The notes: generated by a model from the sequence alone, not told the origin. Shown: positions 128-19,915, numbered from the stretch's first letter. The stretch: 19,915 bases of DNA from Candidatus Nanohalobium sp. (GCA_042217545.1 JBDGSM010000002.1:1-19915); one strand, 5' to 3'. Numbers and translations are program-made.

Positions 128-2095
128 TCAGAATTCCAGGCCTGAAAGCTCTTCCACAGTTGTTCTGTCCTCCAGAAGATTCTTTACGTCGTCCCGGAAT
201 GTGAAGTAGATTATTTGCCAGCCTTCGTCTTCAAGTTGCTCCAGGAATTCCAGCTCTTTTTCAACACGTTCAGTGTCGGAGTGGACAAATGCGTTGTCAA
301 GTATCAGGAAGCCTGGCTCGCCGAGGATCTCACGTGCAAGTTTCAGGCGGACGCTCATGTACAGAAGGTCGTAGGTCCCCTGGCTCAGGGCCTCAGGATT
401 GAACTCTCTGCCATCTTCTCTGACAACTTTCAGCTCCCGGGCATCTCTATCGTAACGAATGTCAGTGTAGTTTCCACCCGTTGCTTTCTCGAACATCTCG
501 ACTGCGTAGCTGTCCTCGTTGAAGATCCTGTTAAATTCATCTTCCTCTTCCTCCTCGATCTCCTCAAGGACATTTATCGCGTTCCTCGAGGCCTCAACGT
601 TTTCCTCAAGAGCGGACATAAAGCTGTCAATCTGCCTCTCAGCACGGTCAAGATCTTCGATAGAGGAGATATCTACAGGATCATCTTCGATCAAATTCTC
701 AGCCACGTTCTTCGAAAGGCTTTTATCGAAATCTTTCAACATCTCGTCATACCTTGAAACCTCGTCCTGAAGGTCTTTCTTCCTTTCCTCCAGCTGTTCA
801 AGCTCTTCCTCAGCTTTTTCCAGGTTTCCTTCCTGGAACTCCCTGTCGACGGATTCGAAGCTGTTTGAAAAATCGTTTAACTCCTCTTTCCAGTCCTCGG
901 GATCTTTATAACTCGCGCTAAACAGGGCCTGAAGCTGTCCAATAGCGTTCTTTTTTTCGCCTCTGACCTCTTCCTTCCTTTTCTCTATATCTTCCTCGTA
1001 GCTGTTAACTGCATCGACCAGCTCTGGCAGCGTCGAGGCCTCGATATCATGAGCCTCTGCCTCTTCGATTATCTGTTCCCTGGCCTGTTCCTGGTTTTTC
1101 TCGGCTTTGACGTCTTTCCTGTATACGTAAGCAGATGCGGCAGCTATCACAACCGACAGGGTAGCCGCGATCACCGGCAGGATATTATCTGTCAGGACAG
1201 TAGCGATGACCGATGCTCCTGCAAGGCCTGTGAAAGCAAGGAATGCTTTCCTGGAGAACTCCCGGGGTGAGGCCTCTTTCTCGAAGTCTTCTGCTTTTTC
1301 CCTGATGTCTTCCAGTTCTTTCAGGCCTTTCTTTTCCTCCTGGATTTCCTGGATTCTTTCGTTGGACTCTCTAAGTTTTTCGAGCTGATTCATTCCTTTC
1401 CGGTACTTGGTCTGTTTCTCGGCTTTTTTCAGTTCCGATATCTCCTTCTGTTTCGATTCTATCCTGTTCTGGAGTGTTTCCAGTTCCCTGTACTTTCTGT
1501 AGAGGCCTTCAGCCTGGATTTTTTCCTGGAACTGTTCGATCTCATTCCTGAGTTTCCCTGCGCCTTTTTTCTTGTCACCGAGTTTGCCGGTATTTTTTGT
1601 GTTCTCCAGCTTGGATTCGCTGGTGGCGTTGGTGAGGTAACCGATGTCGGAGATCTCATTCCTCAGGGCCTGGATCTTTTTCGTCTTCGAACCCAGGATT
1701 CTATCCGTGACATCTTTGAAGTAGTCTCCGCTCCGGAAGTCGTTCTCCCGCTCCGGAAGCCTAAGATCGAAGTCACGGACTATGAACGCATTTCTCACGT
1801 CGTCAACAGTAACATCGCCGAAAACAGCTTCCAGATCCTCCTGAGCTGCATCAAAAACCTCATCGCCCTTTTTGACGTTCAAAAGCCCGTTAGGCCTCTG
1901 GGGCACTCTTCCGATACCTGAGAACTCCGAAGTATCCTCCAGAAGCATCTTGGTAACGGCCTCAACCATCAATGTCTTACCTGACTCGTTCCCGCCGTAG
2001 AAAGCATTCAGGCCTTCTTCAAGCTTGACATCAATATCGCTCAGCGGACCGTACTGATCCAGTTTCAGTCTTTTGATCGCTACCCTACCGCTCAT
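128..2095 (-). CDS. Rad50/SbcC/SMC-like ATPase, YhaN (AAA_27)-type, with a central transmembrane hairpin, 655 aa
   Basis: N-terminal Walker A GGNESGKT, long acidic coiled coils, ABC signature LSQGT, Walker B/D-loop LILDNAFVHSD and a terminal QIIYFT strand. Two hydrophobic segments at about aa 284-325 and no CXXC hook. Overlaps the upstream nuclease gene by 11 nt. Confidence 0.9.
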   Translation of the reverse strand: MSGRVAIKRLKLDQYGPLSDIDVKLEEGLNAFYGGNESGKTLMVEAVTKMLLEDTSEFSGIGRVPQRPNGLLNVKKGDEVFDAAQEDLEAVFGDVTVDDVRNAFIVRDFDLRLPERENDFRSGDYFKDVTDRILGSKTKKIQALRNEISDIGYLTNATSESKLENTKNTGKLGDKKKGAGKLRNEIEQFQEKIQAEGLYRKYRELETLQNRIESKQKEISELKKAEKQTKYRKGMNQLEKLRESNERIQEIQEEKKGLKELEDIREKAEDFEKEASPREFSRKAFLAFTGLAGASVIATVLTDNILPVIAATLSVVIAAASAYVYRKDVKAEKNQEQAREQIIEEAEAHDIEASTLPELVDAVNSYEEDIEKRKEEVRGEKKNAIGQLQALFSASYKDPEDWKEELNDFSNSFESVDREFQEGNLEKAEEELEQLEERKKDLQDEVSRYDEMLKDFDKSLSKNVAENLIEDDPVDISSIEDLDRAERQIDSFMSALEENVEASRNAINVLEEIEEEEEDEFNRIFNEDSYAVEMFEKATGGNYTDIRYDRDARELKVVREDGREFNPEALSQGTYDLLYMSVRLKLAREILGEPGFLILDNAFVHSDTERVEKELEFLEQLEDEGWQIIYFTFRDDVKNLLEDRTTVEELSGLEF

Positions 2096-3116
2096 ATCTT
2101 GAAAGACCTCTCAGAAACTTTTCCTCAACCAGTTCAGGGTTTTCAAAACTTTTTTCCGCAAGCCTGTCCTGGAACTCCTGGTAAATCTTTGAATCAGCTA
2201 TGGACGACACAGATTCAAGGCCTGAACCTGTTAAATCAAATTCTTCAGGTCCCAGGACCTCCAGCTTGTTTTCAAGTTCGTTCAGAAATTCCTCGACAGG
2301 CCTCTTAGTAAACCCGGAGATTTCCACGATCAGTGAAGCATTTCCAATATCCTTCTCCCTGAAATCCTCTATTACTTCTTCCTCGACTTCCTTTTCGTGG
2401 CCTGGAAGCATTTCCATGCTCTTCTTCAGGTAGTGAAAGCTGTCAAGTTCCACAGTTCTGAGGCCTTCTCCTATCTCCAGGATCCAGGCCTCTCTTTTTC
2501 CAGTCTCTGAACGTGATATGGATACAGGTGAACCGCTGTATGCGAATAGTGTGTCTCCAAATTTCTTTTTAGTAGCTGAAGTGTGTATGTGTCCTGCGAG
2601 TACGTGGTCAAAGCCTGTTCGGACAAGTTCTTTTGGTTCGACAGGCAGGTACTTTGATTCCTCGCCGAAACCTCCCTGGGACCCTGTCAGGGTGCAGTGT
2701 ATCATCAGCAGGTTCTCTTTTCCCTCTACAGTTGCTTCTGAGATCGGTTCAACAAGTTCAGAGAAGTCTTTTTCCGTGTAAGGTACTGCGATTATGTTTA
2801 TATCATCGAAGGATTTTCTGCCGTAAGGCCTTTCCTGTATTACCTCTATACTGTCTCCGAAGTGTTCCTCCTGCCTGAAAGCTGATTTGTCGTGGTTTCC
2901 TGGGATGACAAGTGTATGAAAGTTGTTGTCGGAGAATAAAGGCCTTAGATCTGTCTTGAGATCATCGACATCGATGTTTCCGTCGAAAAGGTCTCCTGTA
3001 ATAAGTAGGAGGTCTGCTTCCTCGTTTCTGCAGATGTCCAGAACCTGTTTCAGGGCTTCAAGCCTCTCCGGCTTTCCCGGGGATAGATGTACGTCGGCAG
3101 TGTGGACTATCTTCAC
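2085..3116 (-). CDS. Mre11/SbcD/YhaO-family metallophosphoesterase (DNA repair exonuclease), 343 aa
   Basis: Calcineurin-like motifs HTADVH, TGDLFD, PGNHD, LAGHIH and YSGSP. GTG start. Overlaps the start of the SMC-like ATPase gene. Confidence 0.93.
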   Translation of the reverse strand: MKIVHTADVHLSPGKPERLEALKQVLDICRNEEADLLLITGDLFDGNIDVDDLKTDLRPLFSDNNFHTLVIPGNHDKSAFRQEEHFGDSIEVIQERPYGRKSFDDINIIAVPYTEKDFSELVEPISEATVEGKENLLMIHCTLTGSQGGFGEESKYLPVEPKELVRTGFDHVLAGHIHTSATKKKFGDTLFAYSGSPVSISRSETGKREAWILEIGEGLRTVELDSFHYLKKSMEMLPGHEKEVEEEVIEDFREKDIGNASLIVEISGFTKRPVEEFLNELENKLEVLGPEEFDLTGSGLESVSSIADSKIYQEFQDRLAEKSFENPELVEEKFLRGLSRYER

Positions 3117-3140
3117 ATCTGCCAGTTTGGTCTTCGAGCC

Positions 3141-3440
3141 TTAAATGTACTTGAACTCGCTGTCCGAGCACCTGACCTCTTCCTGTGCTACTCCATACTC
3201 CAGTGCTGCTTCTATCTCGTCTTCGTTGTAGGGAGGCCTTATTCTTTCGATGACGTCTTCCGGCGTGAAGTCTTCTCCCTGTTTCAGGACAGGTTTCACA
3301 AAGGTCTCGTAGATATGTTCTGAACGTTTCTTTCGCTCTCTACTTGCTTCTTCATCCGATGTTTCGGGTGAAAACCTCAGCCTGTAGGATATCTCGTCTT
3401 CTTCCTCTTCCTCATCGCCGAATATTTTTTCCGAAGCCAT
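3141..3440 (-). CDS. Small acidic hypothetical protein, possible C-terminal winged helix; first gene of the nuclease/ATPase operon, 99 aa
   Basis: ATG with TTTATA about 27 nt upstream and acidic composition like the other cytoplasmic proteins. The helix-helix-helix-beta-beta pattern FTPEDVIERI..YNEDEIEAALEYGVAQEEVRCSDSEFKYI suggests wHTH (inference). Ends 24 nt before the nuclease start. Confidence 0.75.
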   Translation of the reverse strand: MASEKIFGDEEEEEDEISYRLRFSPETSDEEASRERKKRSEHIYETFVKPVLKQGEDFTPEDVIERIRPPYNEDEIEAALEYGVAQEEVRCSDSEFKYI

Positions 3441-3466
3441 CTGATTCAGTAGCTTGACGGTTAAGC

Positions 3467-3472
3467 TATAAA
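3467..3472 (-). promoter_or_regulatory. TATA box (TTTATA) for the wHTH-nuclease-ATPase operon
   Basis: Lies 27 nt upstream of ATG 3440, flanked by an imperfect inverted repeat TTGAC...GTCAA (3454-3485). Confidence 0.6.
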
Positions 3473-3596
3473 GGGATTAAGTCAACCCGGGACAGGTATT
3501 GCCGACCTCTCATTTTTTCAACTAGCCCAGATATAATTCAAAGTGTCAACTACCCACTACCTAATCAGAGATTAGGAAGGAGTCTCCATGAGGTGA

Positions 3597-3722
3597 AAAG
3601 ATGACTCAGGTAACTGGTCTCATCCCTCCACGGGCAAAAAGCTCGATCCGAAGAAAGGATACTTTGTGAACGTCAAAAACAGCTGTAAAATGGCCGGCGC
3701 AAGGCCTCCGGTGCCGGAGTAA
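3597..3722 (+). pseudogene. Probable 3' remnant of a decayed surface/secreted protein gene (KDDSGNWSHPSTGKKLDPKKGYFVNVKNSCKMAGARPPVPE*)
   Basis: A protein-like 41-codon frame preceded in frame by ATG-AGG-TGA and further stops. It ends 6 nt before the next gene. The LxPxKGYFV...C pattern resembles C-terminal motifs of surface proteins (inference). Confidence 0.35.
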
Positions 3723-3728
3723 GATAGG

Positions 3729-4019
3729 ATGAAGAAATCAGCAGTTATCGGAGCGTTACTTCTGCTTTCGGGAACTGTAGCAGGCCTTAAGTTCCATGAT
3801 ACCAGGACTGTAGATGGTAAGGTGAACAGTTCGCCGCCTATGCCAGGAGGGAACCTGACAGTGAAGAACAGTACGGCGATGAAGAGTTCCCCGGATAGTT
3901 CCCGATCAGAGGGTTCTAACTCAGGCTCCGATTTTCACGGCGCTCTTGACCATAAGAATAGTGGAGGCTTCTTCTCAAATATTTTACAGGGAATAATGGA
4001 TTTCATTCCTTTCATCTAA
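3729..4019 (+). CDS. Small secreted or membrane-associated protein, 96 aa
   Basis: Signal peptide MKKSAVIGALLLLSGTVAG, a Ser/Gly/Asn low-complexity middle and a C-terminal amphipathic tail GGFFSNILQGIMDFIPFI. Its stop overlaps the convergent gene by 4 nt. Confidence 0.7.
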   Translation: MKKSAVIGALLLLSGTVAGLKFHDTRTVDGKVNSSPPMPGGNLTVKNSTAMKSSPDSSRSEGSNSGSDFHGALDHKNSGGFFSNILQGIMDFIPFI

Positions 4020-4957
4020 TTCTTTTCAGAGACGATCCAACCTTCTCCCGGTAGCTGGTCAGCTTCCAGATGCCTTATAATGTCCTGGGCCTCGCTCCTG
4101 GTATTTCCAACAGTTCTGTTCCTGCCCTGGATGTTGATACGGGAGACCGTGTCGTACTTGAAGGCTGAGGAAATGCTGAGGTTATCCTTCAGATGTCCTG
4201 CGTAACGCAGGTAGATATGGGCTTTTTCTCCAGTCGTCTGGTAGAGGTATCTGCCTGACTTCCCGGTCTCAGATCCTGTAACATAGTTCTGTGCGATCCT
4301 CTTGATCTTTCTGGCTGCAGAGTCCGAGATAGTGACCGGGAATGAGAACCGGTAGCCTGAATCAGTCCTGACAAGTCTCAACTGGTTCCTGTATACTGAA
4401 ATCACATCGTCCGAGCTGTAAGCCTTTAATCCAAGCTCTACGTACTTTCCGGAGACGTTCACCAACCTGACATATGTGCCATCGATTTGGACCGTCTTTC
4501 CCGGGAGAATTTCCTTGCCTGAGATAAAAACGGAGTTGCCTGAGATAGATGTGGAATGGTTTTTACGCAGGGAGAGATTGTTTCCGCTCCCCAGCTTTAA
4601 CCTGAACCAGGCCTTGACCTTCTTGTTCTTTAAAACGCTTTCCAATCTGTCCCTGATGTCTTTACTAGCGTTTAACTGTATATAATTTCCTTTATCCGTG
4701 TTTTCAGGCCTTATAGTTGTGTAGGAGATATTAAATGTTTCAAGTCGTGCCTGAAGGATCGAGGCCTTGTTTCGGGGTGATTTGCTGGTGTTTAATTTTA
4801 TTCTGTATGTATTAAGGTTTTGAGGCCCTGTTTCTGCAGTATTCTGTTTTCCTGTGTGGTTTAAAGTGGAGTTGGCTTTGTTGCTTGTCTGTTTGGAGGC
4901 GCAGCCTGATGTCATCAGGATTGCCGTGAGAAGGAGTGCAGGGACCAGCTTGTTCAT
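4016..4957 (-). CDS. Lipoprotein resembling the SecD extracytoplasmic P1 domain, without SecD transmembrane segments, 313 aa
   Basis: Lipobox LMTSG-C after a hydrophobic core. ILQARLETFNIS matches the P1 base. FPVTISDSAARKI, IYLRYAG, INIQG and EAQDIIRHLEADQLP parallel the SecD P1 head and its terminal L.SG.LP. TATA-like CTTAAG about 25 nt upstream. Confidence 0.75.
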   Translation of the reverse strand: MNKLVPALLLTAILMTSGCASKQTSNKANSTLNHTGKQNTAETGPQNLNTYRIKLNTSKSPRNKASILQARLETFNISYTTIRPENTDKGNYIQLNASKDIRDRLESVLKNKKVKAWFRLKLGSGNNLSLRKNHSTSISGNSVFISGKEILPGKTVQIDGTYVRLVNVSGKYVELGLKAYSSDDVISVYRNQLRLVRTDSGYRFSFPVTISDSAARKIKRIAQNYVTGSETGKSGRYLYQTTGEKAHIYLRYAGHLKDNLSISSAFKYDTVSRINIQGRNRTVGNTRSEAQDIIRHLEADQLPGEGWIVSEKN

Positions 4958-4993
4958 GGCTGCGTTTAGGGTCTTGAGTTTCTTAAGGGTTTT

Positions 4994-5665
4994 TCAGTCG
5001 CTGAGCTCGTTTTTCAGGTCTCTGAGTTGTTCTGTCATGTCTCTGTCGAGGCCTTCGTCTTTGGTTGCTATTCCTGTTGTAAGAAGTAGTTTCATGCCTT
5101 CCTGTACGCTCATGTCGAGTTCCTTGAACTGGTCCTGTCTCAGCATGACCAGGTGTCCCATCGTGGGATTTGGTGTCAGAGGTATGAAGACCGAGTGCAT
5201 CTTTTCATCTTCTGCTTCATCCACTGCTTCCGGTGCTTCTGCTGTCAGAAGGCCTAGTGAGCGGAGGTCCGAGTCCGGGAAGTCTACTAGAACTACTTTC
5301 TGGAAAGTGTCGTCCTCTCCGCTGAATGAGTCGCTTATCCTGTCGACTGTTGAGTAGACCGCTCCGAAGACCGGTATCTCCTTGATCATTTTGTTTATAG
5401 TCAGTGATAGTCTTTCCGAGGCCTTGTAGTTTGATACGTAGCCGATCAGTGTTATGAAGACCACTACGAGAAGTACGGCAATGCCCTGGGCTATTACTGT
5501 GATGTTGCCGGTGTAACTGGCCAGGTTGGTTCCTCTCACGATCGGGTTGACGAAGAGGAAGACGTAATCTGCCAGGAACTTGATTATGACCAGACTTATC
5601 AGCAGGGGCAGGATCATAACCAGGCCTGATTTGAATGATTCTCTGGCACGGCCAGCGTAGTCCAT
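4994..5665 (-). CDS. DUF502 family membrane protein, 223 aa
   Basis: F.SGL..ILPL..S, two TM helices, IPVFGAVYS, FQKVVLVDFP, VFIPLTPNPTMGHL and MSVQEGMKLLLTTG are all characteristic DUF502 motifs. Confidence 0.92.
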   Translation of the reverse strand: MDYAGRARESFKSGLVMILPLLISLVIIKFLADYVFLFVNPIVRGTNLASYTGNITVIAQGIAVLLVVVFITLIGYVSNYKASERLSLTINKMIKEIPVFGAVYSTVDRISDSFSGEDDTFQKVVLVDFPDSDLRSLGLLTAEAPEAVDEAEDEKMHSVFIPLTPNPTMGHLVMLRQDQFKELDMSVQEGMKLLLTTGIATKDEGLDRDMTEQLRDLKNELSD

Positions 5666-5725
5666 AATCAGGTCTTTTGTGTTCTAAGTTCAAAAAGCAG
5701 CAGGTGTGAAAAAGTAGATATACAA

Positions 5726-6007
5726 TCAGTAGCTTTCCTTTTCTACTCCTATGTGGGAAAGCTTCAGATGTGCAGCTATCTGGTGTGAACACGTCCGGCC
5801 CTGGAACTGGCAGGGGCAGAAGGCCTCTCCCGAGTCTATATCCACTCCTACAGTGTATGTATCGGTATCTCCCTCGACTTCGAACTGGTACCTGTCATGG
5901 GACCGGGACTTCAATACAATCTTCTCCTCATCGATGATTCTCCTGGCCTTACCCCATTTATGCAGGTTCTCCCTCTCGGCCCGGGTCATCTCCTCCTCTC
6001 CACTCAT
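5726..6007 (-). CDS. SWIM zinc-finger protein, 93 aa (start revised to ATG 6007)
   Basis: F.V.G...Y.V followed by CPC-x6-CSH, the SWIM CxC...CxH signature. TTTTAAG lies about 28 nt upstream of ATG 6007. Confidence 0.88.
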   Translation of the reverse strand: MSGEEEMTRAERENLHKWGKARRIIDEEKIVLKSRSHDRYQFEVEGDTDTYTVGVDIDSGEAFCPCQFQGRTCSHQIAAHLKLSHIGVEKESY

Positions 6008-6059
6008 GTACACGAAGAGTTCCGGGCTGTGAAGCTTAAAACAGGAAGGCCTTCAGGCA

Positions 6060-6101
6060 GAAAATCATGAAAAATTATTCGAGAGAAAAATAAAGGAAAA
6101 A
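6060..6101 (-). terminator. Oligo-T tracts, putative archaeal intrinsic terminator for a minus-strand transcript from about 6480
   Basis: Several A4-A5 runs on the + strand (T-runs on the minus strand) just upstream of the SWIM gene promoter. Confidence 0.45.
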
Positions 6102-6480
6102 TATGTGGTCTTCAGTCGTTTAAGATGTGTGTTCTCTGGTCATCACCCTTTGTTGAATTTTTCTTGTTGTTTTGTGTTCTCGCATCCGTCAGTCGGAGGC
6201 CTTCGTTCTTTGGAAGCGGTATAGCTGATGCTTTGTTGGTATAAGTGTTGTTTAGTTGTGTGTTTCTTATTCGGAAGCAGATGTCCGACGCTTTTCGGTT
6301 GAGTCCTTTTGCCCGAGGTCCGCTGAGTTGCGGGCCAGGCCAGGTTGTCCCAACCTACTCATCCTGTATTACATATACAGGATATTCGGTGTAGAAAACA
6401 CTTGGAAGATATAGGCCACACAGCGATTAATTGACAGACGCATGCCGCGTGCCGCGATGTGTGCTGCGTGACTCATACCT
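6100..6480 (-). ncRNA. Candidate structured non-coding RNA or leader-peptide transcript (unassigned)
   Basis: Strong TATA (6498-6507) upstream and T-tracts downstream, with only short ORFs. Several perfect stems (6361-6383, 6342-6356, 6311-6335, 6271-6288) separated by A/C-rich linkers on the minus strand. Confidence 0.4.
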
Positions 6481-6496
6481 GTACTTTGTAATCCAG

Positions 6497-6508
6497 CTTT
6501 TATAAAAG
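6497..6508. promoter_or_regulatory. Palindromic TATA box CTTTTATAAAAG
   Basis: Perfect 12-bp palindrome containing consensus TTTATAAA. Its near edge is about 21 nt from the minus-strand ATG at 6476. Confidence 0.6.
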
Positions 6509-6595
6509 TTTGGCTCTAATCTGTGGAGGCCTTGAGAATGGTGTTGAGGCCCGGTATAGAAATTTGGTTAAATGTTTCCCGGTAATTTACTGTTT

Positions 6596-6931
6596 ATGGA
6601 TGAGGATCTGCGTTTGATCGAGGAGTATGCAGGCCTTGAAGACACTGAGTTGCATCGGGATTTTGAAGCCATAGTCTCGGATGTCTTTGAGATCCAGGAA
6701 CTGCAGCGTTCTTTTACGAGCAGTCAGCTTCCTGATGGTTTTGTCTCGGAGACCGTTGAAGGCGGGGATTTTGGTTTTTACGCCGAGAAAATCTATGATT
6801 CCGGGAGGATTGAGGTTGAGTACACCGAGTCTTCAGATGTCGGCTTTGAATCCCGGGATGCGTCACAGGTTACTGTTTCCGTTGAGGCCGCTGGCTACGA
6901 GTTCAGCAAGGCCTGGGATCAGAACAGGTAG
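6596..6931 (+). CDS. Acidic hypothetical protein, 111 aa (start revised to ATG 6596)
   Basis: Very D/E-rich ORF. TTAAAT at 6568-6573 lies about 23 nt upstream of ATG 6596 and overlaps the alternative ATG at 6572. Confidence 0.72.
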   Translation: MDEDLRLIEEYAGLEDTELHRDFEAIVSDVFEIQELQRSFTSSQLPDGFVSETVEGGDFGFYAEKIYDSGRIEVEYTESSDVGFESRDASQVTVSVEAAGYEFSKAWDQNR

Positions 6932-6933
6932 GT

Positions 6934-7935
6934 TTACTGTTTCTCTATTATCATGTCCAGTAGGTTTTTCAGGATTCCAAAGATGACAGGTCCGAGGAAG
7001 ATGCCTACAGGTCCGAAAAGGCCTATACCTCCTATCAGGCCGAGAAGTATGAAGAACGGATGGATGTCTGCGTCGCTGTCGACAACCAGGGGTCTGAGGA
7101 AGTTGTCGCTGCCGCCCACCAGTATTACTCCGTAGGCTACAAGGAATCCTGCCGCCAGTAGATTGCCTGTGATAGCGAGGTATACTGCGGCAGGGAACCA
7201 GACGAACGCTGACCCGATCATAGGTATGAATCCGAGCAGCACCATGACAAACGTCCAGAACAGGACGTTGGGCACACCCGCTATCAGGAGGCCTATACCT
7301 GCGAGAACTCCCTGTGAGAACGCCACCAGCACATGGCCTTTGACAACGGCCCAGACCGATTCAGCGGTCGAGCTGTACAGCATATCCTGTCTCTCATCGT
7401 TCATGAAGTCAAACTTCTTCGTCCATTCAACGAACTGCCTGCCATCCTTCAAGGCGTAGAACTGCAGGAAAAGCATTAGCGAGACACCTATCGAAAGATC
7501 AGTGAACAGGCTTACCGCCGAGGAAAGGCCTGAAGGCAGGAAGGAAGCGATGTTCTTAACGAGTTCGCCGGCCCTACGCTCGATGTGGATGGACTGGCCG
7601 GTGTACTGCATCACCAGGTGATCGATCTGGTCCGCTGCCTGGAGGCCCTGAGACGTATTAATACCTGAGACCATTCTTGCGGCGTCTCCTCCTACGGCTC
7701 CGATTATTATCGTGAAAGGCAGAATCGCGGCGAAGATAGTCAAGGCGATCACCAGAACTGCCGATACATCTTTCCCAAACCTGGACCTGATCTTCCTGAA
7801 CGCAGGATATGTTACAAAAGCCAGGAGAAGGCCTGTCAACAGGTAGCTTATCAGAGATGAGATCATGATAAAGCAGATTAAAGCTACGAGCACAGTACTA
7901 CCGTAGAGAAAGGCCTTCTGTCTGTCGATCTCCAT
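6934..7935 (-). CDS. AI-2E family (PerM/UPF0118) transporter, 333 aa
   Basis: Multiple TM helices with the motifs FYALKDG, LLGFIPMIGSAFVWFP, DNFLRPLVV, IHPFFILLGLIGGIGLFGPVGIFLGPVI. Confidence 0.95.
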   Translation of the reverse strand: MEIDRQKAFLYGSTVLVALICFIMISSLISYLLTGLLLAFVTYPAFRKIRSRFGKDVSAVLVIALTIFAAILPFTIIIGAVGGDAARMVSGINTSQGLQAADQIDHLVMQYTGQSIHIERRAGELVKNIASFLPSGLSSAVSLFTDLSIGVSLMLFLQFYALKDGRQFVEWTKKFDFMNDERQDMLYSSTAESVWAVVKGHVLVAFSQGVLAGIGLLIAGVPNVLFWTFVMVLLGFIPMIGSAFVWFPAAVYLAITGNLLAAGFLVAYGVILVGGSDNFLRPLVVDSDADIHPFFILLGLIGGIGLFGPVGIFLGPVIFGILKNLLDMIIEKQ

Positions 7936-8009
7936 GAAAGAAGTTTTCCGGAAAAATTTAGATAAAGTTTTAGGTCAGGATTAAATCACTAGCAGGGAAA
8001 AAGATTTGT

Positions 8010-8590: not shown

Positions 8591-8591
8591 G

Positions 8592-9248: not shown

Positions 9249-9370
9249 ACAGGCAGATTTTTGACCTGTACCTTTTAACCGGGTTAAGTGATCTCAAAGT
9301 TACCTTGTTTCAATGGGGGGGCTGATGGAGCTGGCTTTGTGCGTCCCGACAGAGGTTTTTTTGAAACAAA

Positions 9371-9376
9371 TTTAAA
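9371..9376 (+). promoter_or_regulatory. TATA box (TTTAAA) for the KaiC-like gene
   Basis: Lies 23 nt upstream of ATG 9399 and is preceded by purine-rich GAAACAAA (BRE-like). Confidence 0.65.
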
Positions 9377-9398
9377 CAGTGAAGCCACAGTCTGTGTT

Positions 9399-10085: not shown

Positions 10086-10095
10086 GGCCTAACGA

Positions 10096-10125: not shown

Positions 10126-10133
10126 CCAAGATT

Positions 10134-11528: not shown

Positions 11529-11577
11529 AGAAAGGCCTCTTATCTAACATTTTGTGAACCCTCCTTGAAAAAGAGTT

Positions 11578-14500
11578 CTATTCCTCATCTTCCTGATCTT
11601 CTTCTCCGTGGATGTTCTGCCTGGCTCTCCTGTTGGCTGCCCACCATTTCTCCAGTTCCTCCATACCTTTCCACGGGGCCTTCAGGTAGTTCTGAACCGT
11701 GAGCTTGCTCCAGAGGAATCCATCCAGCTCATCCTTCAGGTCTTCCTTCTCTCCACGGAGCTCCAGTATCCTGTTCTGCCTGTCCTGCATCATCTCGTTG
11801 AAGGTGTCCTTGTCTATCTGTCTCTTGAAGTACTGCTTCTCGCCCTTTTTCCGGGCCTCAACCTGATCCTCAAGTTCGCTGTTAATCCTTACGAGCTCTG
11901 TCTGAATCCTGTAGTACGGGATACCTACGACTGTTACGAGGAAGAACGCGATGTAAAGCAGCATGAATCCTAGTGCGTACTTCCACCAGTTCAGAAGTAC
12001 GTACTTCTTCAGGGCCTTGGCCTCAAGCTTTGAATCAATGGTTTCAGCTTTCGAATAACCCTGATTCAGGCCTTCTCTCAGGGCTGTCAGGTTATCATCC
12101 ATTATGGATCTGTTAGCGTCTTCAATACTGTTCCAGAGGCCTTTGAACATCTTTCTTTCCCCAGAAGTATCTATACCTGCTAACCTGTACCGCTTTATGC
12201 TTGCGTTCAACAACTGTGCCCGTTGCTTGAGCTCCTTGTATTTTTCTACTTCCTTCCTGTCCAGAACCTGGAAATCCAGGTACCTCTCCCTTGAGGCGTT
12301 ACCGCTCCTGATTGAAAGCAGAGGGCTGAAAGTCCCTTCACGTGTGTGAAGAGGCACATAAACGCCTAGCTTGAACCTCCTAGTCTGCTGAGGCCCTATC
12401 TGTGCTGAGGTCACTTTGTGCCCGTTGCTAAGGACGTAGGCGTTGCAGCAGCTGCTTGAAAAGTTGAATTGCAGGTTGAGAGGTTTGCTCTTTTTCTTGC
12501 TTGTAACTGTGAACCGTGCAGTAGCGTTCTCGTACTGTAAGACTGATTCGTTCAGCGGTGTCAGGCTTGTTGGGAGCGATGCGTTGAAGGAGTTGATCTC
12601 GACGTTGCCACGAGAGAACACAATGTTCCTGGTGGCGTTAGCGCTGTCCGAGGCGCACATAACGCTGTAACTGAAAGTATTGTAGTCCACGTCGCTTATG
12701 TCCACTTCTGCCTGGTGGTATGCGCCGCCTGTTTTGTCGAAGGATTTTGCCTGCTTGAAGCTTACGTCCTCCGGGATAACGTTTCTTGAATAGACACATT
12801 TAGCCGCTATGTTGGTGTTAACTGATAGATTGACTGTTTTAGTGCCTGGCGCAACGGTAACTGGCGGGGATAGCCTTGTAATCTTCATTCGGGGTCCTCC
12901 TCCACCAGGCAATCCCGAGAATCCTCTTCCAGGGCCTGTTCCGTTCTTGGTCGTTCCAGAGCCACCTATACTTACTGAGAATGATGGTGGTGGGCTGGTC
13001 AATAGGTCCTGGCTTTCCGAGTTTCCTCTGTTGTCAGATCCAACTAGGAGTATTGACACGCTTTTGCCTGATTCTGGAGCAGTAAAGGTTGCTGTCGCCG
13101 TCCCGTTGTCGTGGTTGTAATCCATTCTCTGATAGCCTGTGGATCCCTGCTTGCACTCGCTGCATATCGCGAAGGATGAGAACGATCCCGCATCGATAAG
13201 CTGTCCTCCAGGCTCCCTCCAGTAAACCTTGACAGTGAAGTTCGATCCAGGTTTGATATAGTCCGGCTGCTCCATCTTAACAGGCTTCAGAAGCCTGCTT
13301 ACACCCACAGTCTTTTTCAGGCTGGCTGAGTTATTTCCTTTACTCACGTTCAGGTATAGCGTGTAATCCACCGGAATCTTGGCCGGATCAGTAGTACTGG
13401 ACGGAGGATCTGACCGCTTCACGGTGTAAGCGCTTATTCCGCCTGCGCCGTTTGCAAGGCTTACATTGGATCCATTTCTTGATAGAACAGCATTCAGATC
13501 ATAGTTATTGAGCCGTTCACCATCAGCATCCCTCAGCTCCATATTATACTTTATCTTCTCCCGAGTCAGATAGATCTGCCTGCTTGGAGAGACATCTAGG
13601 TTCAGACTATCACTAACCCTGAAACTGCCGTTTTCACCGTCCGAGTTACCTGCTATATCCCATGCAGTGACTCTGAAGCTGTAATTACCTGCCTCAGAAG
13701 TATTAGTGAACCTGTAGCGGTACATACCATCATCTCCCCGGTTCATACTGAACTTCTGAATCTTTGAAGACTTGTTAACAGGATGGGAGACCTCCAAAGT
13801 AACATTATCGAGTAAAGAGTTGTCTGTAACGTTTGCCTGGAACGAAATACTTTCATTCAGGTTTGGAACGGATTCACTGCTACTTACCTGTCTCAGAACA
13901 GGACTTGAGGAATCAGAGGACACGATTTCCACAGGAACCTTCTTGCTGGTTCCATTTCCTTTACCGGGCGTGGCAGTGAACGTCAGGTTGGCCTTACCTG
14001 TCGAATAGGAGGCCTTTGTAAGGTAGCCGACATCTTTTCTGCGGTCTGAGTATGTGAGATTTCCGGCCGACTTGCTGGCCCGGATAGGCTTTATAACAGA
14101 GTTATTGGAGCTCTGGACCGTCAGGTTTATATTGCGCAGGCCTCCGTCCAAGGCCTTGAGCACCCAAGTAAGATTGTAGGGCGAAGCCGATTTAGGCAGG
14201 ATTAGAACAGAACTGTTGCCGTTTATATTTTGTACTGAGCTATTTCCATACGCCACTGAGACGTTACCTGTTTTCTTTGTTATGGTGGAATCTCCCGTTG
14301 ATGCTTTGACCTTGAATGAGTAGTTCCCTGAATTGTAGAACCTACTGAACTTCAAAGTGTTTTCTCCATTGACCTGATCATACGAACTTATCGTGTTTCC
14401 TCCCAGAGGCCTGGAAGCATTGATTTCTATATTTTCTACAGGTTCTGAGTTGCCTGTGATATTCAAGGAGAATTTGACGGGGTTTCCAACCGTTGTGGTG

Positions 14501-17500
14501 TTCTGTAGTAGCGTTGCATTCATTTCAAGCTGTGATACATTGAAGCTTTCTCCCAGCGTCTTCCTCCTGAGGTTTCCGTGGTTGTCCTTAACGTATATTT
14601 TTGTGAAGTTGTAGGTTCCTCTACGGGATGTTTTCTGGTAATCTACATACCAGAGATGTTTCCTGTTTACCGATGAACTTTTCTGTAATGTAAGATTCTC
14701 TTCCTGTCCTGTTGTGTTAACTACTGTCGCGTTAGCCGACCGTATCTTTGAGTTATCCTTGAGCTGGGCCTTGAGGGTCTCAGTCTGATTCAGGTTTATT
14801 TTAGAGGCAGTTATACTGTAACTTTCTACAGTCGGTTTCTCCGAGTCCTTTACATGGATTGAGATCGCCTTTGAAGTATTGTAGGTTCCTGTCCTCTCCC
14901 CCAGAGCTGCCTCTATACTGTAATCGCCTTTACCTGCTATGGAAAGATTTGAGAACGTGAAGTCCTGGCTGTAGCCCGAGGAAATGTTGTTCAAATGCCT
15001 TACATGGTTTTCATCATCTGGAATGTTCTTCAGTTTCAGAGCAGCATCTACAGCCTTCCCTGTGTTGCCCTGGCTTTTCAGGTTGAGAGCCGTAAGGTTA
15101 ACTGAGAAGTTCTCATTCTGATCCACTGTACAGCTCCCTACACAGCTCAAATTGGCGATCTGTAGATCTGGAGCACGGTAAAGAGATCTAGCGATCCTTT
15201 TATTACCCAGGAGATCTGTTCTGAACGTTACGTTAGTATCCTGCGCTGGTGTAAAGGCCTCGGGATCTATCGTCACATTCAGATGCCAGTAGCCTCCAGA
15301 TACGTTCAAGTCAAGGCCTTTAGAGGTCTCCGTTGCATTGCATTCGCCTCCGTAGCTGCAGGAAAAGTTCTCTACCCCAAGTTTATCTGAACCGGTTTTA
15401 AAGACTGTTAGGCCTATTTCTTTACTTTCTACCGTCTTGTTCAGATCTACCTGAAGCGTCAGGTTTCCACGGTAACCAGCGGGCACGTCCAGGCCTTTTA
15501 CAACTTCTGTGGAGTAGTTGTTCACGTTGAATTTGGGAAGTCCTGAGTCCACTTTCCTGGTGTTCCCTGCATTATCGGTTATGTATACTGCAGTTACGTT
15601 GTATTTTCCAGCTTTGGATCTTTCTCCGATGTCTGCACGCCATAGATTATTATCTCCTGAGATATTCTGCATCGTGTAGTTCTTCCTATTTCCTCCATTG
15701 ACCTCTACTACTGCGCTGTCAACTCCGTTCTTGTCGGAGAGGTTGGCGTTGAAGTAAAGAGCTTCTCCTTTGTATATGTTAACATCTCCTCTGAGGCCTT
15801 TTGGCTGTGAAAGGTTTGAGGCCTCTAGTTGAGGTTTCTTGGTGTCCAGGGTGTATGTGTATGTTTTCTTCAGCTGGTTTCCTGCCGTGTCGTTGATGAG
15901 GAGTTCAACCTGTTTCTGTCCATCATTTGTCCATCCTGGATCGAATTTTGTGCCGTTTTGAAGCGTATTAACTGCTCCAGAAGCATTCCATTTTGCAGAG
16001 GAAACATCCGATATATCATCGGTGAAGTTGACGTTGAATTTCCTGGAGCCGTTTATCACATTTTCTCCCGGTGCGATGTCAAGTATTCTCGGCTTCTTGT
16101 AATCCACAAGGTAGTTTCTGGTCTTCCTCCCCTCAAGGCCTACTTCGTCAATGGCCTTCACCCGCACAGTACACGTATGGTCGTCCGCTGTGGCGTCACA
16201 TCTTTCGCTGTTGCCCACGTTTACCTGGATGTCGTTAGTGCAGGAATGGTACATCCATCTGGAGCCTTCTATCTTTACACGGCATCTAAGAACTGACACG
16301 TTCTCTACATTGTCGCTTATACTTGTTTTAACATTGAAGTTTTTGTTCTGCCAGGTATTTGCCGCTGGAGAATCTATTGACACGTCTGGTGCCACATTGT
16401 CGACCTTAAACCTCAGGAGGGAAGTGTTACTGTTTCCTGCCGTGTCTTTCGCTGTCAAGCGAATCTGGCACTTATTCGATGAACTATCCTTGCAGTTACC
16501 AGTAACGAAGTCAAAGCTACTGTCGCTGAACTTAATGCCGTAACTTCCTTGCTTCCAGGAATTATTTCCGTAACGGTATTCTACAGAGATTGAGCCATTG
16601 CTTTCGTCGTCATCTGCCGTAAAGCCTACATTGATGACTCCTGTCTCCCAGGAACTGTTGATGCTGCTCTGCAGCGCAACATTTGGAGGTTGAGTGTCCA
16701 GGTAAAACCATGTGCTGGAATTAGCAGATGTTGAAGCGTTATCCAATGCTCTTGACTTCAAACTGTAGTTCCCGTCTCCAGAGAGCTGTGACGAATCCAG
16801 CACAGCATTGAAAGTATGGTTAGAGGCTCCTATACCGGTCAGATTCTGCGAGTAAACCATATTTCCATTTGAATCGTAGATACTGTAATTATGGCTTTCA
16901 ATAACATTGACTCCTGGCCTCTTGGCGTGGACAGAGAGATCGATAGTACTGTTTACGTACTGCCTGTAAGGCCTCTGGATAGTTACTGATGTCTTACTAT
17001 TCTCCACACGGAAGCCTGAGGTATCCGAGGCCTTGTTGCCGGAGCTATCCAGGACGGTTAAATTGGCTTTTACATCCCCGAATAGGGATATATCCGGATT
17101 GCTGTTCCAGATAGCGGAGTAGGAATTGGAAGAGTTGAGGTCTCCTGAGTCAAACACCTGGGAAGAGTTTGAAGCATTGTAAACCGTGTAGTTTACGTCT
17201 TTGATACCTGAGTCCTTATCTGAGATCCTTGCCTTTATCTGTACCTCGCCTGCGACTCTTGAGCCTTTGCTTGGATATCTTAAGGTCGCTTCAGGCTTTT
17301 TCTTGTCTATAAGGATTCTCTGTGTTTCGTAGCTGGCGTTGGCATTGCCTGCGGAGTCAGTAGCACCGTATTTGACCGATTTATTGCAGACTGCCCCGTC
17401 TACACAGCCTACATCGACCGTAACGTTCTTTCCTGATAGTGAGGAACCTGTTTTCGCGCAGAGGCCTGTGAGAGTCCTGACGCAGTAGGATATCTTCCCC

Positions 17501-19914
17501 ATTTTCCTGTCGTCGTAGGCCTTTAGAGGTATGGATGTGTTCTTGCCTTTCCATCCCGGATTAGTGTAAGTGGAGTAAGGCGTCGGAGGTTCTGTATCCA
17601 CTGTGTAGGTGAAGTTCAGTATTACTCCGTTGTCCGCCCTGTCCTTTAACGAGATATTGAATGATTTTTCTCCCTGCGTATCGTTATTTATCTCCGCGGC
17701 TAGATCGGATCCCTGGCTGCTCTTCCTCGAAGCACCGTCCAGGATCTTTATACTCGAGGATTTGACTCCTGAGAGCGCATCCGAGAAGTTCATCCTGATA
17801 ACTGTCGTGTTGAGTATGTAGGACTGGTTCGAGACCGATAACCGGGATACCTGGGGCGGCGTATCGTCCACAGTGTAGTTATAGAGTAAGTGGCGGATGT
17901 TGCTGGCATTATCTTTCAACCATACGTCAAGTGTCCGATAACCTTGCGACCAGTTAGGACTGAATGTAAACGATTTGGACTGCTTGGTAACATTTGATCC
18001 TGTCCCTAGAGTTGCGGAGACAAAGTGCTGATCTTTGATCGCGAAATCCAGGTTCTCACCTGACTTGATAGCGGAGTTATTGCCCCTTATCTGGCCTCCC
18101 GCCTTCACAGACTTCACTGTCGGCGCCCTGGTATCTACATCATACTTGAAGACGTTTTTACGCATATTCAAGGCCTTATCAAAGATGTATGCGAAAAAGG
18201 TCTGGTTATCTCCATCAGAGCTGAAGGGATCAAGGCCTCCAGTTGTGTTAACTTCCAGGCTTCCATTACCGCTGCTGTCATCGTACCTGTTACGGTAAGT
18301 CTTCGAACCCAGGTTCTTACTGCCGTTAAGGACAGAGTAGTTATCGCTAGCGTTCAACTCGAATACATCTGAAAGTTTGATCACCGAACGGTTTTTAGGG
18401 CCTATATCCATGATATTTGGCTTCTGAGTATCATAGATAACAGTATCGTTTACGATCGTTGGAGCCAGGTTACCTGCGTAGTCGCGGAACTGTGTGGAGA
18501 TTTTTCTGTTACCTGTCTTACCAGGACATCCAAGAGATGAATTCGTGATATCTATCTGTACCTGGTCGGCCGTCCCGTTTCTCACATACCATCTCGACCA
18601 GTCTTTCCGGTTACATGAAAACCTGAAAAGATCAGGAACTGCCTTATCGGTCAGATAACTTGGCTTTGAGACCCTCACATCCACTTCAGGATCGTTCACG
18701 TAATACCTGGAAATATTCACGTCCTGCTTCTTAGGCCTCTTAGTATCAACCACAATCCACGCCTCAGTCTTGGAACCCCAGTACCCCTGGGTCGAGTTAT
18801 CCTTGAACTGAACCGCATAGGTATCGTTCAAACCACCATAGTCGCCGGAAAGATCATAATCAACCTTCCTTGCGTCTACAAGGCCTTTCACCGAGACATT
18901 GCCTGAAGTAAGGAACTCTCCACGGGACTCATTTATCTTTGAATCAAGAGAAAGTTCATCGATAATATAGGCATCCTGGGCAGAGGAATTGTTTCTCTTA
19001 ACCCGTAGCCTGAAACTATCAGTATACGCCGAGGAAGGAAGCTGACTGGTCCTGACCTTCTGCCATTCACCGGAACCAAGATCTCCGGGCTTTATCACCT
19101 TCAAAGTATTCCAGCCCGAGCCCCCATTCTGCTCATACTGAATCTTCAGATCCTCTGCTCCCTCCGCCGGGTCGCAAGAAGAAGACTGGGAAGGCTTTTT
19201 CACCCAGAACTCCAGGCTCAGGTTCTGCGAAGAACTGACATTATAGGACCTGGAAGTAACCTCTGCTGTGCCTCCATTGGCCGAAGATTGCAGAATCAGA
19301 GCCTTATCACCCTTATAGGCCCCGCAGGACTTAGAGATCTTTGAATACTTCGCTCCTGAGAAATTCCACACATTTTGATCTGTGAAATTTTCGAAACCTG
19401 ACTGGATAACCGGTTTAAGGCCTATGCTTGAGTTAGAGTGCTGGAACCGGGCGTTCGCGATCTTGGTATTCCTGGGATAATAACCTGTCGAACTAAGTGT
19501 AAACGTGCTGTTAGTATACTTCGACTCGTTTACCTTTGTATAAGGCAGATCCTTCCCGGAGTAGGCCTTAGTATTCTTAATTCGAGGCCCCAGAAGGAAA
19601 TTGACTATGTTGCTCATCAGCTTATCCCGGGTCTTGTTGGAACTTACTGCTTCAAAGCCGAAAGTGCCCAGGACCGAACGATACCTGTAGGGTGAGGCGT
19701 GAACCAGCGCACTGGCCAGTTCATCCGGAGTATCTCCTGTTTTTGGCGTATCTCCATCTTTTTCAACATAGTATTTGGGATCAGCGTCTTTCCGGGCGTT
19801 TAGGTTCAAGGCTATCTGTATGGCATGCTGGTGGTTATCTCTCCTTGGCTCCCATGTCATATTCACAGAACCCGATCCTTTCCTTATACTGGAGTGCAGG
19901 GCGTATTTTAGGTT
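11578..19914 (-). CDS. Giant membrane-anchored surface protein/adhesin with many Ig-like repeats (5'-truncated by the window; >2,770 aa)
   Basis: The frame is open from the window edge (NLKYALHSS... upstream of GTG 19866). Repeated D-x-x-G-N...VD-x-x-x-P Ig-like (Big) motifs, Cys pairs and dozens of N-x-S/T sequons. A Gly-rich linker, then coiled coil, a single TM (WWKYALGFMLLYIAFFLVTVVGIPYY, about 11912-11988) and a cytoplasmic coiled-coil tail. Confidence 0.92.
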   Translation of the reverse strand, partial: NLKYALHSSIRKGSGSVNMTWEPRRDNHQHAIQIALNLNARKDADPKYYVEKDGDTPKTGDTPDELASALVHASPYRYRSVLGTFGFEAVSSNKTRDKLMSNIVNFLLGPRIKNTKAYSGKDLPYTKVNESKYTNSTFTLSSTGYYPRNTKIANARFQHSNSSIGLKPVIQSGFENFTDQNVWNFSGAKYSKISKSCGAYKGDKALILQSSANGGTAEVTSRSYNVSSSQNLSLEFWVKKPSQSSSCDPAEGAEDLKIQYEQNGGSGWNTLKVIKPGDLGSGEWQKVRTSQLPSSAYTDSFRLRVKRNNSSAQDAYIIDELSLDSKINESRGEFLTSGNVSVKGLVDARKVDYDLSGDYGGLNDTYAVQFKDNSTQGYWGSKTEAWIVVDTKRPKKQDVNISRYYVNDPEVDVRVSKPSYLTDKAVPDLFRFSCNRKDWSRWYVRNGTADQVQIDITNSSLGCPGKTGNRKISTQFRDYAGNLAPTIVNDTVIYDTQKPNIMDIGPKNRSVIKLSDVFELNASDNYSVLNGSKNLGSKTYRNRYDDSSGNGSLEVNTTGGLDPFSSDGDNQTFFAYIFDKALNMRKNVFKYDVDTRAPTVKSVKAGGQIRGNNSAIKSGENLDFAIKDQHFVSATLGTGSNVTKQSKSFTFSPNWSQGYRTLDVWLKDNASNIRHLLYNYTVDDTPPQVSRLSVSNQSYILNTTVIRMNFSDALSGVKSSSIKILDGASRKSSQGSDLAAEINNDTQGEKSFNISLKDRADNGVILNFTYTVDTEPPTPYSTYTNPGWKGKNTSIPLKAYDDRKMGKISYCVRTLTGLCAKTGSSLSGKNVTVDVGCVDGAVCNKSVKYGATDSAGNANASYETQRILIDKKKPEATLRYPSKGSRVAGEVQIKARISDKDSGIKDVNYTVYNASNSSQVFDSGDLNSSNSYSAIWNSNPDISLFGDVKANLTVLDSSGNKASDTSGFRVENSKTSVTIQRPYRQYVNSTIDLSVHAKRPGVNVIESHNYSIYDSNGNMVYSQNLTGIGASNHTFNAVLDSSQLSGDGNYSLKSRALDNASTSANSSTWFYLDTQPPNVALQSSINSSWETGVINVGFTADDDESNGSISVEYRYGNNSWKQGSYGIKFSDSSFDFVTGNCKDSSSNKCQIRLTAKDTAGNSNTSLLRFKVDNVAPDVSIDSPAANTWQNKNFNVKTSISDNVENVSVLRCRVKIEGSRWMYHSCTNDIQVNVGNSERCDATADDHTCTVRVKAIDEVGLEGRKTRNYLVDYKKPRILDIAPGENVINGSRKFNVNFTDDISDVSSAKWNASGAVNTLQNGTKFDPGWTNDGQKQVELLINDTAGNQLKKTYTYTLDTKKPQLEASNLSQPKGLRGDVNIYKGEALYFNANLSDKNGVDSAVVEVNGGNRKNYTMQNISGDNNLWRADIGERSKAGKYNVTAVYITDNAGNTRKVDSGLPKFNVNNYSTEVVKGLDVPAGYRGNLTLQVDLNKTVESKEIGLTVFKTGSDKLGVENFSCSYGGECNATETSKGLDLNVSGGYWHLNVTIDPEAFTPAQDTNVTFRTDLLGNKRIARSLYRAPDLQIANLSCVGSCTVDQNENFSVNLTALNLKSQGNTGKAVDAALKLKNIPDDENHVRHLNNISSGYSQDFTFSNLSIAGKGDYSIEAALGERTGTYNTSKAISIHVKDSEKPTVESYSITASKINLNQTETLKAQLKDNSKIRSANATVVNTTGQEENLTLQKSSSVNRKHLWYVDYQKTSRRGTYNFTKIYVKDNHGNLRRKTLGESFNVSQLEMNATLLQNTTTVGNPVKFSLNITGNSEPVENIEINASRPLGGNTISSYDQVNGENTLKFSRFYNSGNYSFKVKASTGDSTITKKTGNVSVAYGNSSVQNINGNSSVLILPKSASPYNLTWVLKALDGGLRNINLTVQSSNNSVIKPIRASKSAGNLTYSDRRKDVGYLTKASYSTGKANLTFTATPGKGNGTSKKVPVEIVSSDSSSPVLRQVSSSESVPNLNESISFQANVTDNSLLDNVTLEVSHPVNKSSKIQKFSMNRGDDGMYRYRFTNTSEAGNYSFRVTAWDIAGNSDGENGSFRVSDSLNLDVSPSRQIYLTREKIKYNMELRDADGERLNNYDLNAVLSRNGSNVSLANGAGGISAYTVKRSDPPSSTTDPAKIPVDYTLYLNVSKGNNSASLKKTVGVSRLLKPVKMEQPDYIKPGSNFTVKVYWREPGGQLIDAGSFSSFAICSECKQGSTGYQRMDYNHDNGTATATFTAPESGKSVSILLVGSDNRGNSESQDLLTSPPPSFSVSIGGSGTTKNGTGPGRGFSGLPGGGGPRMKITRLSPPVTVAPGTKTVNLSVNTNIAAKCVYSRNVIPEDVSFKQAKSFDKTGGAYHQAEVDISDVDYNTFSYSVMCASDSANATRNIVFSRGNVEINSFNASLPTSLTPLNESVLQYENATARFTVTSKKKSKPLNLQFNFSSSCCNAYVLSNGHKVTSAQIGPQQTRRFKLGVYVPLHTREGTFSPLLSIRSGNASRERYLDFQVLDRKEVEKYKELKQRAQLLNASIKRYRLAGIDTSGERKMFKGLWNSIEDANRSIMDDNLTALREGLNQGYSKAETIDSKLEAKALKKYVLLNWWKYALGFMLLYIAFFLVTVVGIPYYRIQTELVRINSELEDQVEARKKGEKQYFKRQIDKDTFNEMMQDRQNRILELRGEKEDLKDELDGFLWSKLTVQNYLKAPWKGMEELEKWWAANRRARQNIHGEEDQEDEE

Positions 19915-19915
19915 C

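Follow-up and report, generated by a model that had tools for sequence, protein, structure and literature searches.

Background

Short palindromes repeated throughout a genome are known from the cyanobacteria, in which HIP1 (GCGATCGC) and alternates such as GGCGCC occur in all reading frames and in non-coding DNA at about 15 times the expected frequency (PMC4390886; PMC5861425). As these accounts portray them, such highly iterated palindromes (HIPs) are accompanied by an excess of words that are one base off at an outer position, are conserved between genomes, are patchily distributed among relatives and have no known function. Here we describe an archaeal palindrome that shares all of these properties, the hexamer AGGCCT, in a stretch of 19,915 nucleotides from Candidatus Nanohalobium sp. 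(GCA_042217545.1, JBDGSM010000002.1:1-19915; "the window" below is this whole stretch) and in the genome to which it belongs (G000; other G and L codes denote the genomes and loci compared). Apart from being archaeal, AGGCCT departs from the HIPs of the same two sources in reaching 2,000-4,800 copies per Mb against the 500-2,500 quoted there, in having no cognate methylase that we could find, in not being lower in ribosomal-protein genes and in showing no kilobase peak in a Fourier analysis of G058 (PMC5861425 used a damped-sine method), and its exclusion zone of 25-45 bp, described below, has no counterpart that we found in those descriptions. Since four features of HIPs are present and the methylase feature fails, we regard AGGCCT as a HIP variant and not as HIP1 itself.

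Other over-represented words offer further comparison. The uptake signal sequences (USS) and DNA uptake sequences (DUS), in the account available to us, enrich the peptides they can encode while the reversed controls stay flat (PMC2817400), as AGGCCT does, but AGGCCT differs from them in being a palindromic hexamer in genomes that have no ComEC. Chi and the Chi-like sequences of RecBCD and AddAB are likewise described as over-represented and as richer in resident than in acquired DNA (PMC8022716), and all genomes rich in AGGCCT carry a candidate helicase-nuclease pair whose identity with AddAB would be one of analogy; unlike Chi, AGGCCT is its own reverse complement and without polarity, far exceeds the density of Chi in Escherichia coli (one per 5 kb) and shows short-range exclusion. 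The same hexamer is reported from Alcanivorax borkumensis SK2 with 1,674 methylated sites and a cognate system (PMC12128166), whereas here no such methylase was found and the density is far higher. GGCC is not mentioned in the main text of a methylome study of Ca. Nanohalococcus occultus (PMC11001535). The literature searched, which did not extend to subscription journals and supplements, held no report of AGGCCT in archaea and none pairing it with the Nanohaloarchaea.

Genome-wide enrichment of AGGCCT

A preliminary description of the window had counted about 71 AGGCCT sites where some five were expected, an excess of about 14-fold. The number is exactly 71, with the first start at 138 and the last site at 19563-19568; the enrichment stands, although the expectation recomputed from base counts is about 4.3 and the excess about 16-fold. 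AGGCCT, the recognition sequence of StuI, is the most frequent hexamer of the window and makes up 71 of its 125 GGCC cores (57%, more than half as had been claimed), and 36 of the other 54 cores are the one-mismatch variants that had been noticed (21 NGGCCT and 15 AGGCCN). Every coordinate in that description proved to be right.

The enrichment extends to the whole genome. The G000 assembly (82 contigs, 92% complete) holds 3,699 copies in 1,032,751 bp, about one per 280 bp, and the hexamer is present on 82 of 82 contigs at 1.3-5.9 per kb. Its observed-to-expected ratio is 15.2 at zero order and 5.1 under an order-2 Markov model, the next palindromic hexamer reaching 2.5. When synonymous codons were shuffled within genes (30 shuffles, with protein and codon usage preserved and gene calls from a simple custom caller), phases 0, 1 and 2 held 112, 195 and 262 sites against the 499, 1,014 and 1,471 observed, an enrichment of 4.5-5.6-fold per phase, and the density outside gene calls is 3.9 per kb. 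The signal was thus neither lost under the shuffle, nor limited to the window, nor confined to one reading phase, and these data support the view that in this nanohaloarchaeon AGGCCT is a highly iterated palindrome at the level of DNA, spread over the whole genome irrespective of reading phase.

Distribution among nanohaloarchaea

Against the best records named Nanohaloarchaea, the EF-1alpha of the source organism shows 84-92% identity, and the organism is placed by the tree as the sister of the SG9 locus L114. The comparison of relatives proposed in the preliminary description shows a patchy trait: 12 of 70 genomes of the phylum, from four genera, are high in AGGCCT at about 2.0-4.8 per kb (densities computed from rounded genome sizes), namely all 3 genomes of genus g1, 4 of 5 in g3, all 3 of g17 and 2 of 6 in g18. 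With about 0.95 per kb, G023 is intermediate, and the remaining genomes of the phylum have at most 0.7. Among 80 named loci surrounding EF-1alpha, which are not independent samples since some may come from the same 70 genomes, three are high, L114 (SG9) with 72 sites, L122 (Ca. Nanosalina sp. VS9-1) with 85 and L123 with 63, and the other 77, including all non-nanohaloarchaeal ones, have at most 0.63 per kb. The high loci do not form one clade in a six-protein FastTree with a poorly resolved backbone: L123 (3.0 per kb) stands apart from G000 and L114 and groups with L126 (0.6) and L116 (0.0) at supports of 1.0 and 0.99. Along the chromosome of G058, a high genome in a single contig, the density is even, with 51-97 sites per full 20 kb. 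A metagenome scan for close strains returned 28 loci, of which none was close, although 75 sites occur in the 20.7 kb of one relative, L254.

The low genomes have features of their own. As an alternative HIP in them, ACCGGT was rejected at a density of at most about 1.1 per kb. G032, G046 and G063 strongly avoid both AGGCCT and GGGCCT (55-97 and 30-49 copies per Mb), possibly to escape GGCC restriction, and G046 and G063 hold the two best C5 methylase matches. In the low genome G055, contigs C1 and C2 have 1 and 5 AGGCCT in 54 and 112 kb, far fewer than the rest of the assembly, and are possibly foreign or viral DNA; contigs C1, C2, C4 and C6, being N-rich or atypical, were left out of the codon analyses. 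Among the 80 viral loci listed by a viral scan, none combined high density with an acidic proteome; locus L343, which was chosen by its pattern and is therefore a biased case, has 30 AGGCCT over 10.1 kb, a 10-fold excess, and its proteome is not acidic.

Effect on proteins and conservation of sites

Where the genetic code offers an opportunity for AGGCCT, the high genomes mostly take it. Occupancy in the three phases is 0.76, 0.60 and 0.73 in G000 and 0.85, 0.71 and 0.72 in G058, against 0.09-0.11 in the low genomes G055 and G065, and the corresponding odds multipliers are 29.5 and 43.5 against 1.7. The effect reaches the amino acid sequences: over 468 ortholog pairs of G000 and G055, R-P occurs 269 against 180 times, [KEQ]A[FLSYCW] 657 against 417 and xGL 822 against 589, while the reversed peptides in the same pairs give 150/153, 352/318 and 567/545. 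Three more pairs of a high and a low genome agree, and a pair of low genomes is flat. AGGCCT has therefore enriched its encodable peptides 1.4-1.6-fold, which is to say that it has altered proteins.

Conserved proteins offer fewer opportunities, but occupancy is nearly independent of gene class, the ribosomal-protein operon having 0.74 against 0.78 overall. Short spacers are the densest DNA, at 4.0-5.0 per kb in G000 and 5.7-10.3 per kb in G058, and tRNA genes hold no site in 1,263 bp (G000) and one in 2,402 bp (G058). Of the four longest site-free gaps in G058, three belong to a type I restriction/GmrSD island and one to another region; the next are the 23S rRNA and S-layer genes.

Sites are conserved between relatives, as the ortholog comparison that had been suggested shows. 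Of 46 aligned sites, 34 are common to G000 and L114, whose four-fold sites differ by 0.52-0.63, in a comparison that is small and has no control motif. G000 shares 598 of 1,484 aligned sites with G058 at 65% protein identity, and only 58 of 1,190 with the low G055. The window is nearly letter-identical to contigs from two of three public runs, which may be its source; seven clear single-base differences were found in two runs, none within a site, too few to test selection.

Specificity and spacing of the sites

The words that differ from AGGCCT by a single base are not equally affected. GGGCCT and its complement AGGCCC are enriched 2.7-fold in G000 and 5.1-fold in G058 after allowing for the full site (0.75 and 1.14 in low genomes), TGGCCT and CGGCCT are enriched 1.1-2.0-fold, and words with an inner mismatch are at or below the level of low genomes. 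GGCC with both flanks wrong is depleted, TGGCCA to 0.6 and CGGCCG to 0.5-0.6, against about 1 in low genomes. Set against the reversed control, GGGCCT gives a ratio of 0.83-4.0 across the 12 high genomes and of 1.35 in G023, while none of the family's other 37 genomes exceeds 0.74, a clean division of the family; this weak site is common to all high lineages, which indicates that the four lineages share one specificity. An extended motif, TTnA-AGGCCT-TnAA, was rejected since it occurs in the low G055 too and reflects codon context.

Neighbouring sites also exclude one another. Pairs closer than about 45 bp in G000, or about 25 bp in G058, occur at about half to three quarters of the expected frequency, and six control hexamers at short range mostly at 1 or more. 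When occupancy was permuted among opportunities of the same peptide context, occupied pairs at 6-15, 16-25, 26-35 and 36-45 bp came to 0.53, 0.66, 0.82 and 0.76 of the permuted value in G000 (z of -5.3, -4.9, -2.7 and -3.6) and to 0.57, 0.72, 1.04 and 0.96 in G058, the deficit below 25 bp reaching a z of about -5 in either genome. The weak site is likewise scarce (0.41-0.63) up to 25 bp from a perfect one, but words with an inner mismatch are not (1.01-1.19). Other GC-rich inverted hexamer pairs are flat at 0.95-1.08, so that the deficit is not hairpin avoidance. Sites more than 50 bp apart are nearly independent.

Search for a methylase and for other readers

The methylases proposed in the preliminary description did not follow the trait. 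The C5 family PF00145 was found in 17 of the 70 genomes, only one of which is among the 12 high ones, and the four high genomes with a single contig all lack it; a full-length match to the N4/N6 family PF01555 was found in one of the 12; the PF01555 match of G000 we take, from our own reading of its sequence, to be a THUMP/Trm11-like RNA methylase. PF02086 was found in none of five high genomes, and PF07669 exceeded the cut-off in three of five, in genes of unlike size, with neither G000 nor G053 among them. No methylase family among those tested is common to the high genomes. Vsr, phosphorothioate and deazaguanine functions were absent from the 344 scanned G058 proteins, no phylum-wide search having been made for them.

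Several other genes were considered and rejected as causes. The Rad50-like ATPase of the window is in 6 of 70 genomes and 4 of 12 high ones. Loss of UvrB fails as an explanation, the gene being present in only 8 of 70 genomes, one of them high. The 55-aa short histone is in 64 of 70 and is identical in the high G056 and G058 and the low G057 and G047; an EndoIII-like glycosylase is in 65 of 70; a PadR-like regulator is in nine of 70, five high and four low; an alkyltransferase-like protein is in three of three high and one of two low genomes; and two unknown proteins are in one and none of five. A Pfam scan of G058 proteins absent from the low set, covering 275 of 293 proteins not in G000 and 69 of 71 in G000 and leaving out 20 at tile borders and 41 short ones, revealed no shared site-specific DNA enzyme.

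Some of these searches turned up observations of separate interest. UvrABC is rare and patchy in the phylum (in G055 it lies at L207:2575-9224), and the UvrB of G055 shares 91% identity with that of G026, a genome from another genus, as a recent transfer would explain. G000 has what we read as four histone-fold genes (C21:8179, C21:26787, C23:39931 and C56:3104), the 55-aa short type included, and about 30 LamG/concanavalin-like lectin genes lie across the G058 chromosome (L061-L113).

Origin of the palindrome

The explanation we favour, which we hold with roughly even confidence, is that AGGCCT is the recognition site of a putative two-fold symmetric, sequence-specific factor that binds double-stranded DNA, and that the site is under weak selection. 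The palindromy, the graded tolerance of the outer bases and the short exclusion zone all point to a factor reading the site. The data establish the enrichment, the specificity profile, the shift in the proteome, the exclusion at short range, the independence of gene class and the lack of a methylase shared among the families tested; binding by a protein, its symmetry, selection in preference to site-biased conversion, and a biological role are what we infer. Such a factor would read the full hexamer, tolerate G for A at one outer position and cover about 25-45 bp. Each site would confer a small advantage independent of position and gene class (odds of about 30-45-fold, ln 3.4-3.8), a second site within the covered stretch would add less, and over long times most synonymous opportunities and spacers would fill, with amino acids shifting where proteins tolerate it. 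Its task would probably be chromosome-wide, in DNA organisation or self-marking. The preliminary description had offered a DNA-level system in several forms, and the genome-wide palindrome is borne out: its methylation-coupled form is not supported by the methylase searches and its uptake form lacks ComEC, while a chromatin or segregation protein site fits the spacing and weak-site data best, although no such protein was found.

A number of observations weigh against this interpretation. No reader was found, seven candidates over 70 genomes and four over five genomes failing to track the trait, and the subtraction of low genomes was incomplete, covering a G055 assembly with a completeness of 82% and, for G065, 420 kb out of 957. 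Selection and biased conversion give the same equilibrium, so that counts cannot separate them. The footprint is unequal (about 45 bp in G000 and 25 bp in G058) and the exclusion only partial, the flank bias for A at +3/+4 is found in the low G055 as well with no clear extended motif, and there is neither a 10-11 bp phasing nor a Fourier kilobase peak above threshold (G058, three bin sizes), and hence no sign of ordered higher structure.

Among the alternatives, a Chi-like signal would let an AddAB/AdnAB-like pair of a UvrD-type helicase and a PD-(D/E)XK protein (C17:39063-44359 in G000; the AddAB label is our presumption, by analogy with the gene arrangement) halt resection at AGGCCT, sparing self DNA and biasing repair toward alleles that bear the word. 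Every one of the 12 high genomes has the PF12705 PD-(D/E)XK partner, and of the six genomes in g18 it is confined to the two high ones; within the family the contrast is 12 of 12 against 17 of 38 (Fisher p 5e-4, but a weak association of about 0.04 with the four lineages as units), the helicase is in all three high genomes tested and is shortened in the low G046, and acquired islands free of sites fit a signal described as richer in core than in acquired genes (PMC8022716). Yet the partner is also in 27 of 58 genomes that are not high and in haloarchaea, G065 has the gene while no hexamer there exceeds 1.9-fold (363 kb of genes), the pair was picked from some 11 candidates, the two-of-six pattern in g18 is repeated by the Rad50-like gene, so that the match may only reflect kinship, and the partner has no PDB match by sequence or profile; a processive enzyme should, moreover, exclude over hundreds of bases and not 25-45, and Chi is described as usually polar and need not be palindromic (PMC8022716). 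We consider this reading unlikely. Distinctly unlikely, in our estimate, is a ratchet of the HIP1 type (the Elhai model), in which a methylase or another modifier marks GGCC or AGGCCT and mark-directed short-patch repair fixes mutations that create sites, with no benefit to the cell. It would account for the excess of words with one wrong outer base and for the loss of GGCC cores that are wrong on either side, a pattern that Elhai set out for HIP1 (PMC4390886), patches of repair would lead to local exclusion as well, AGGCCT methylation systems are known elsewhere, in Alcanivorax (PMC12128166), and some HIP1 cyanobacteria are likewise reported without a recognisable methylase (PMC4390886). What it has to contend with, besides the lack of a shared methylase in four families, is that G000 and G058 diverge at four-fold sites by 0.63-0.64 however far from a site one looks (bins of 1,809-8,815 positions), indicating no zone of higher fidelity near sites and so arguing against local repair, and that G000 (1.62 and 1.53, against 1.2-1.6 in low genomes) shows no selective loss of the T/G-repair substrates AGGTCT and AGGCTT.

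A reader encoded by the haloarchaeal host and acting on symbiont DNA at cell contact, with the trait following host range, would explain why no symbiont gene tracked it and why high genomes that are not one clade have the same weak site, and a methylase activity is reported to have passed, in the opposite direction, between host and nanohaloarchaeon (PMC11001535); against this, the stability of the trait over genera (3 of 3 in both g1 and g17) together with the 598 of 1,484 shared sites would require very long contact, and we give the idea a poor chance. The peptide enrichment with flat reversed controls would equally suit a DNA uptake signal that, as with USS and DUS, builds up through biased uptake and recombination, an option made very improbable by the absence of ComEC (PF03772) from all 70 genomes, in a search that detected 10 of 14 controls, and by the known uptake signals being 9-10 bp long and not palindromic as described (PMC2817400). 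Finally, one might invoke a bias in codons or codon pairs, a demand for particular amino acids, an influence of hairpins or an artefact of assembly, and other words in low genomes do show codon-pair effects of 1.5-1.9-fold; but enrichment in all three phases and in non-coding DNA, the filling of about 10% of opportunities in low-genome orthologs, the flat hairpin controls and the occurrence of the trait in 12 independent assemblies leave this explanation a negligible probability, and it is already refuted.

Sites and genes of the window

The 71 sites of the window start at 138, 589, 1036, 1224, 1270, 1323, 1503, 1892, 2010, 2218, 2298, 2461, 2486, 2826, 2940, 3234, 3702, 3782, 4609, 4706, 4762, 5049, 5250 and 5419, then at 5622, 5821, 6047, 6197, 6527, 6631, 6909, 7019, 7289, 7526, 7829, 7911, 8176, 8583, 8906, 9059, 9180, 10085, 10165, 10324, 10913, 11016, 11195 and 11533, and lastly at 12068, 12137, 14010, 14138, 14151, 14407, 15255, 15314, 15410, 15491, 15794, 15819, 16136, 16969, 17028, 17462, 17517, 18171, 18233, 18733, 18881, 19418 and 19563. 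Phases 0, 1 and 2 hold 11, 23 and 31 of them, and six are intergenic or span a gene end (3702, 6047, 6197, 6527, 10085 and 11533). Weak sites, a status that comes from the genome-scale data, number 18 (11 GGGCCT and 7 AGGCCC) and are scattered over 1..19915. The preliminary description had placed sites in all three phases, in intergenic DNA, across a stop codon and in both the giant gene and the others, and all of this is correct. Its examples of the three phases lie on the minus strand in one gene, S-G-L at 138..143 (phase 2), E-A-S at 589..594 (phase 1) and R-P at 1892..1897 (phase 0).

That gene (128-2095, minus strand) would encode a Rad50/SMC-like ATPase, and beside it lies one for a Mre11/SbcD-like nuclease (2085-3116, minus strand); both assignments rest on weak NCBIfam matches below the cut-off. 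A 558-bp spacer without a long open reading frame (6014..6571) holds the sites at 6047, 6197 and 6527. Short, highly divergent contigs of two runs stack within it at 6293-6400, which suggests a conserved element or a repeat common to relatives; no Rfam family reached its gathering score in the window, this spacer included. A KaiC-domain ATPase gene (9288-10085, plus strand) has the site across its stop codon (10085..10090, plus strand) and is convergent with a second gene for a KaiC-domain ATPase with a long acidic N-terminal extension (10134-11528, minus strand). The giant gene (11578..19866, minus strand) holds 23 sites in 8,289 bp (2.8 per kb), the other 11,577 bp holding 48, and the longest site-free gap of the window (12143-14009) lies inside it. 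Its predicted product of 2,762 aa, of a secreted type, is rich in Asn, Ser and Thr, with a C-terminal membrane helix and a coiled tail, and it has no NCBIfam match; the frame of the gene stays open as far as the contig end.

Conclusions

HIP1 has been without a demonstrated function for decades, and the leading model for it depends on methylases. Here a HIP-like signal is found in archaeal genomes of 1 Mb that have no shared methylase, with high and low relatives within one genus. The weak site and the zone of 25-45 bp provide exact probes and controls for finding the reader, and the gene list is small enough to screen; AGGCCT also offers a simple marker of resident against recently acquired DNA in these symbionts. 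It is possible, though we put it forward only tentatively, that the palindrome is a methylation-free self-mark, a protein of the symbiont's own, horizontally spread or supplied by the host, coating the chromosome at unmodified AGGCCT about every 280 bp and so distinguishing or packing symbiont DNA at host contact. If this is true, AGGCCT would be the first highly iterated palindrome of the Archaea and the first with a measured binding footprint, one able to rewrite the proteins of the organism that carries it.

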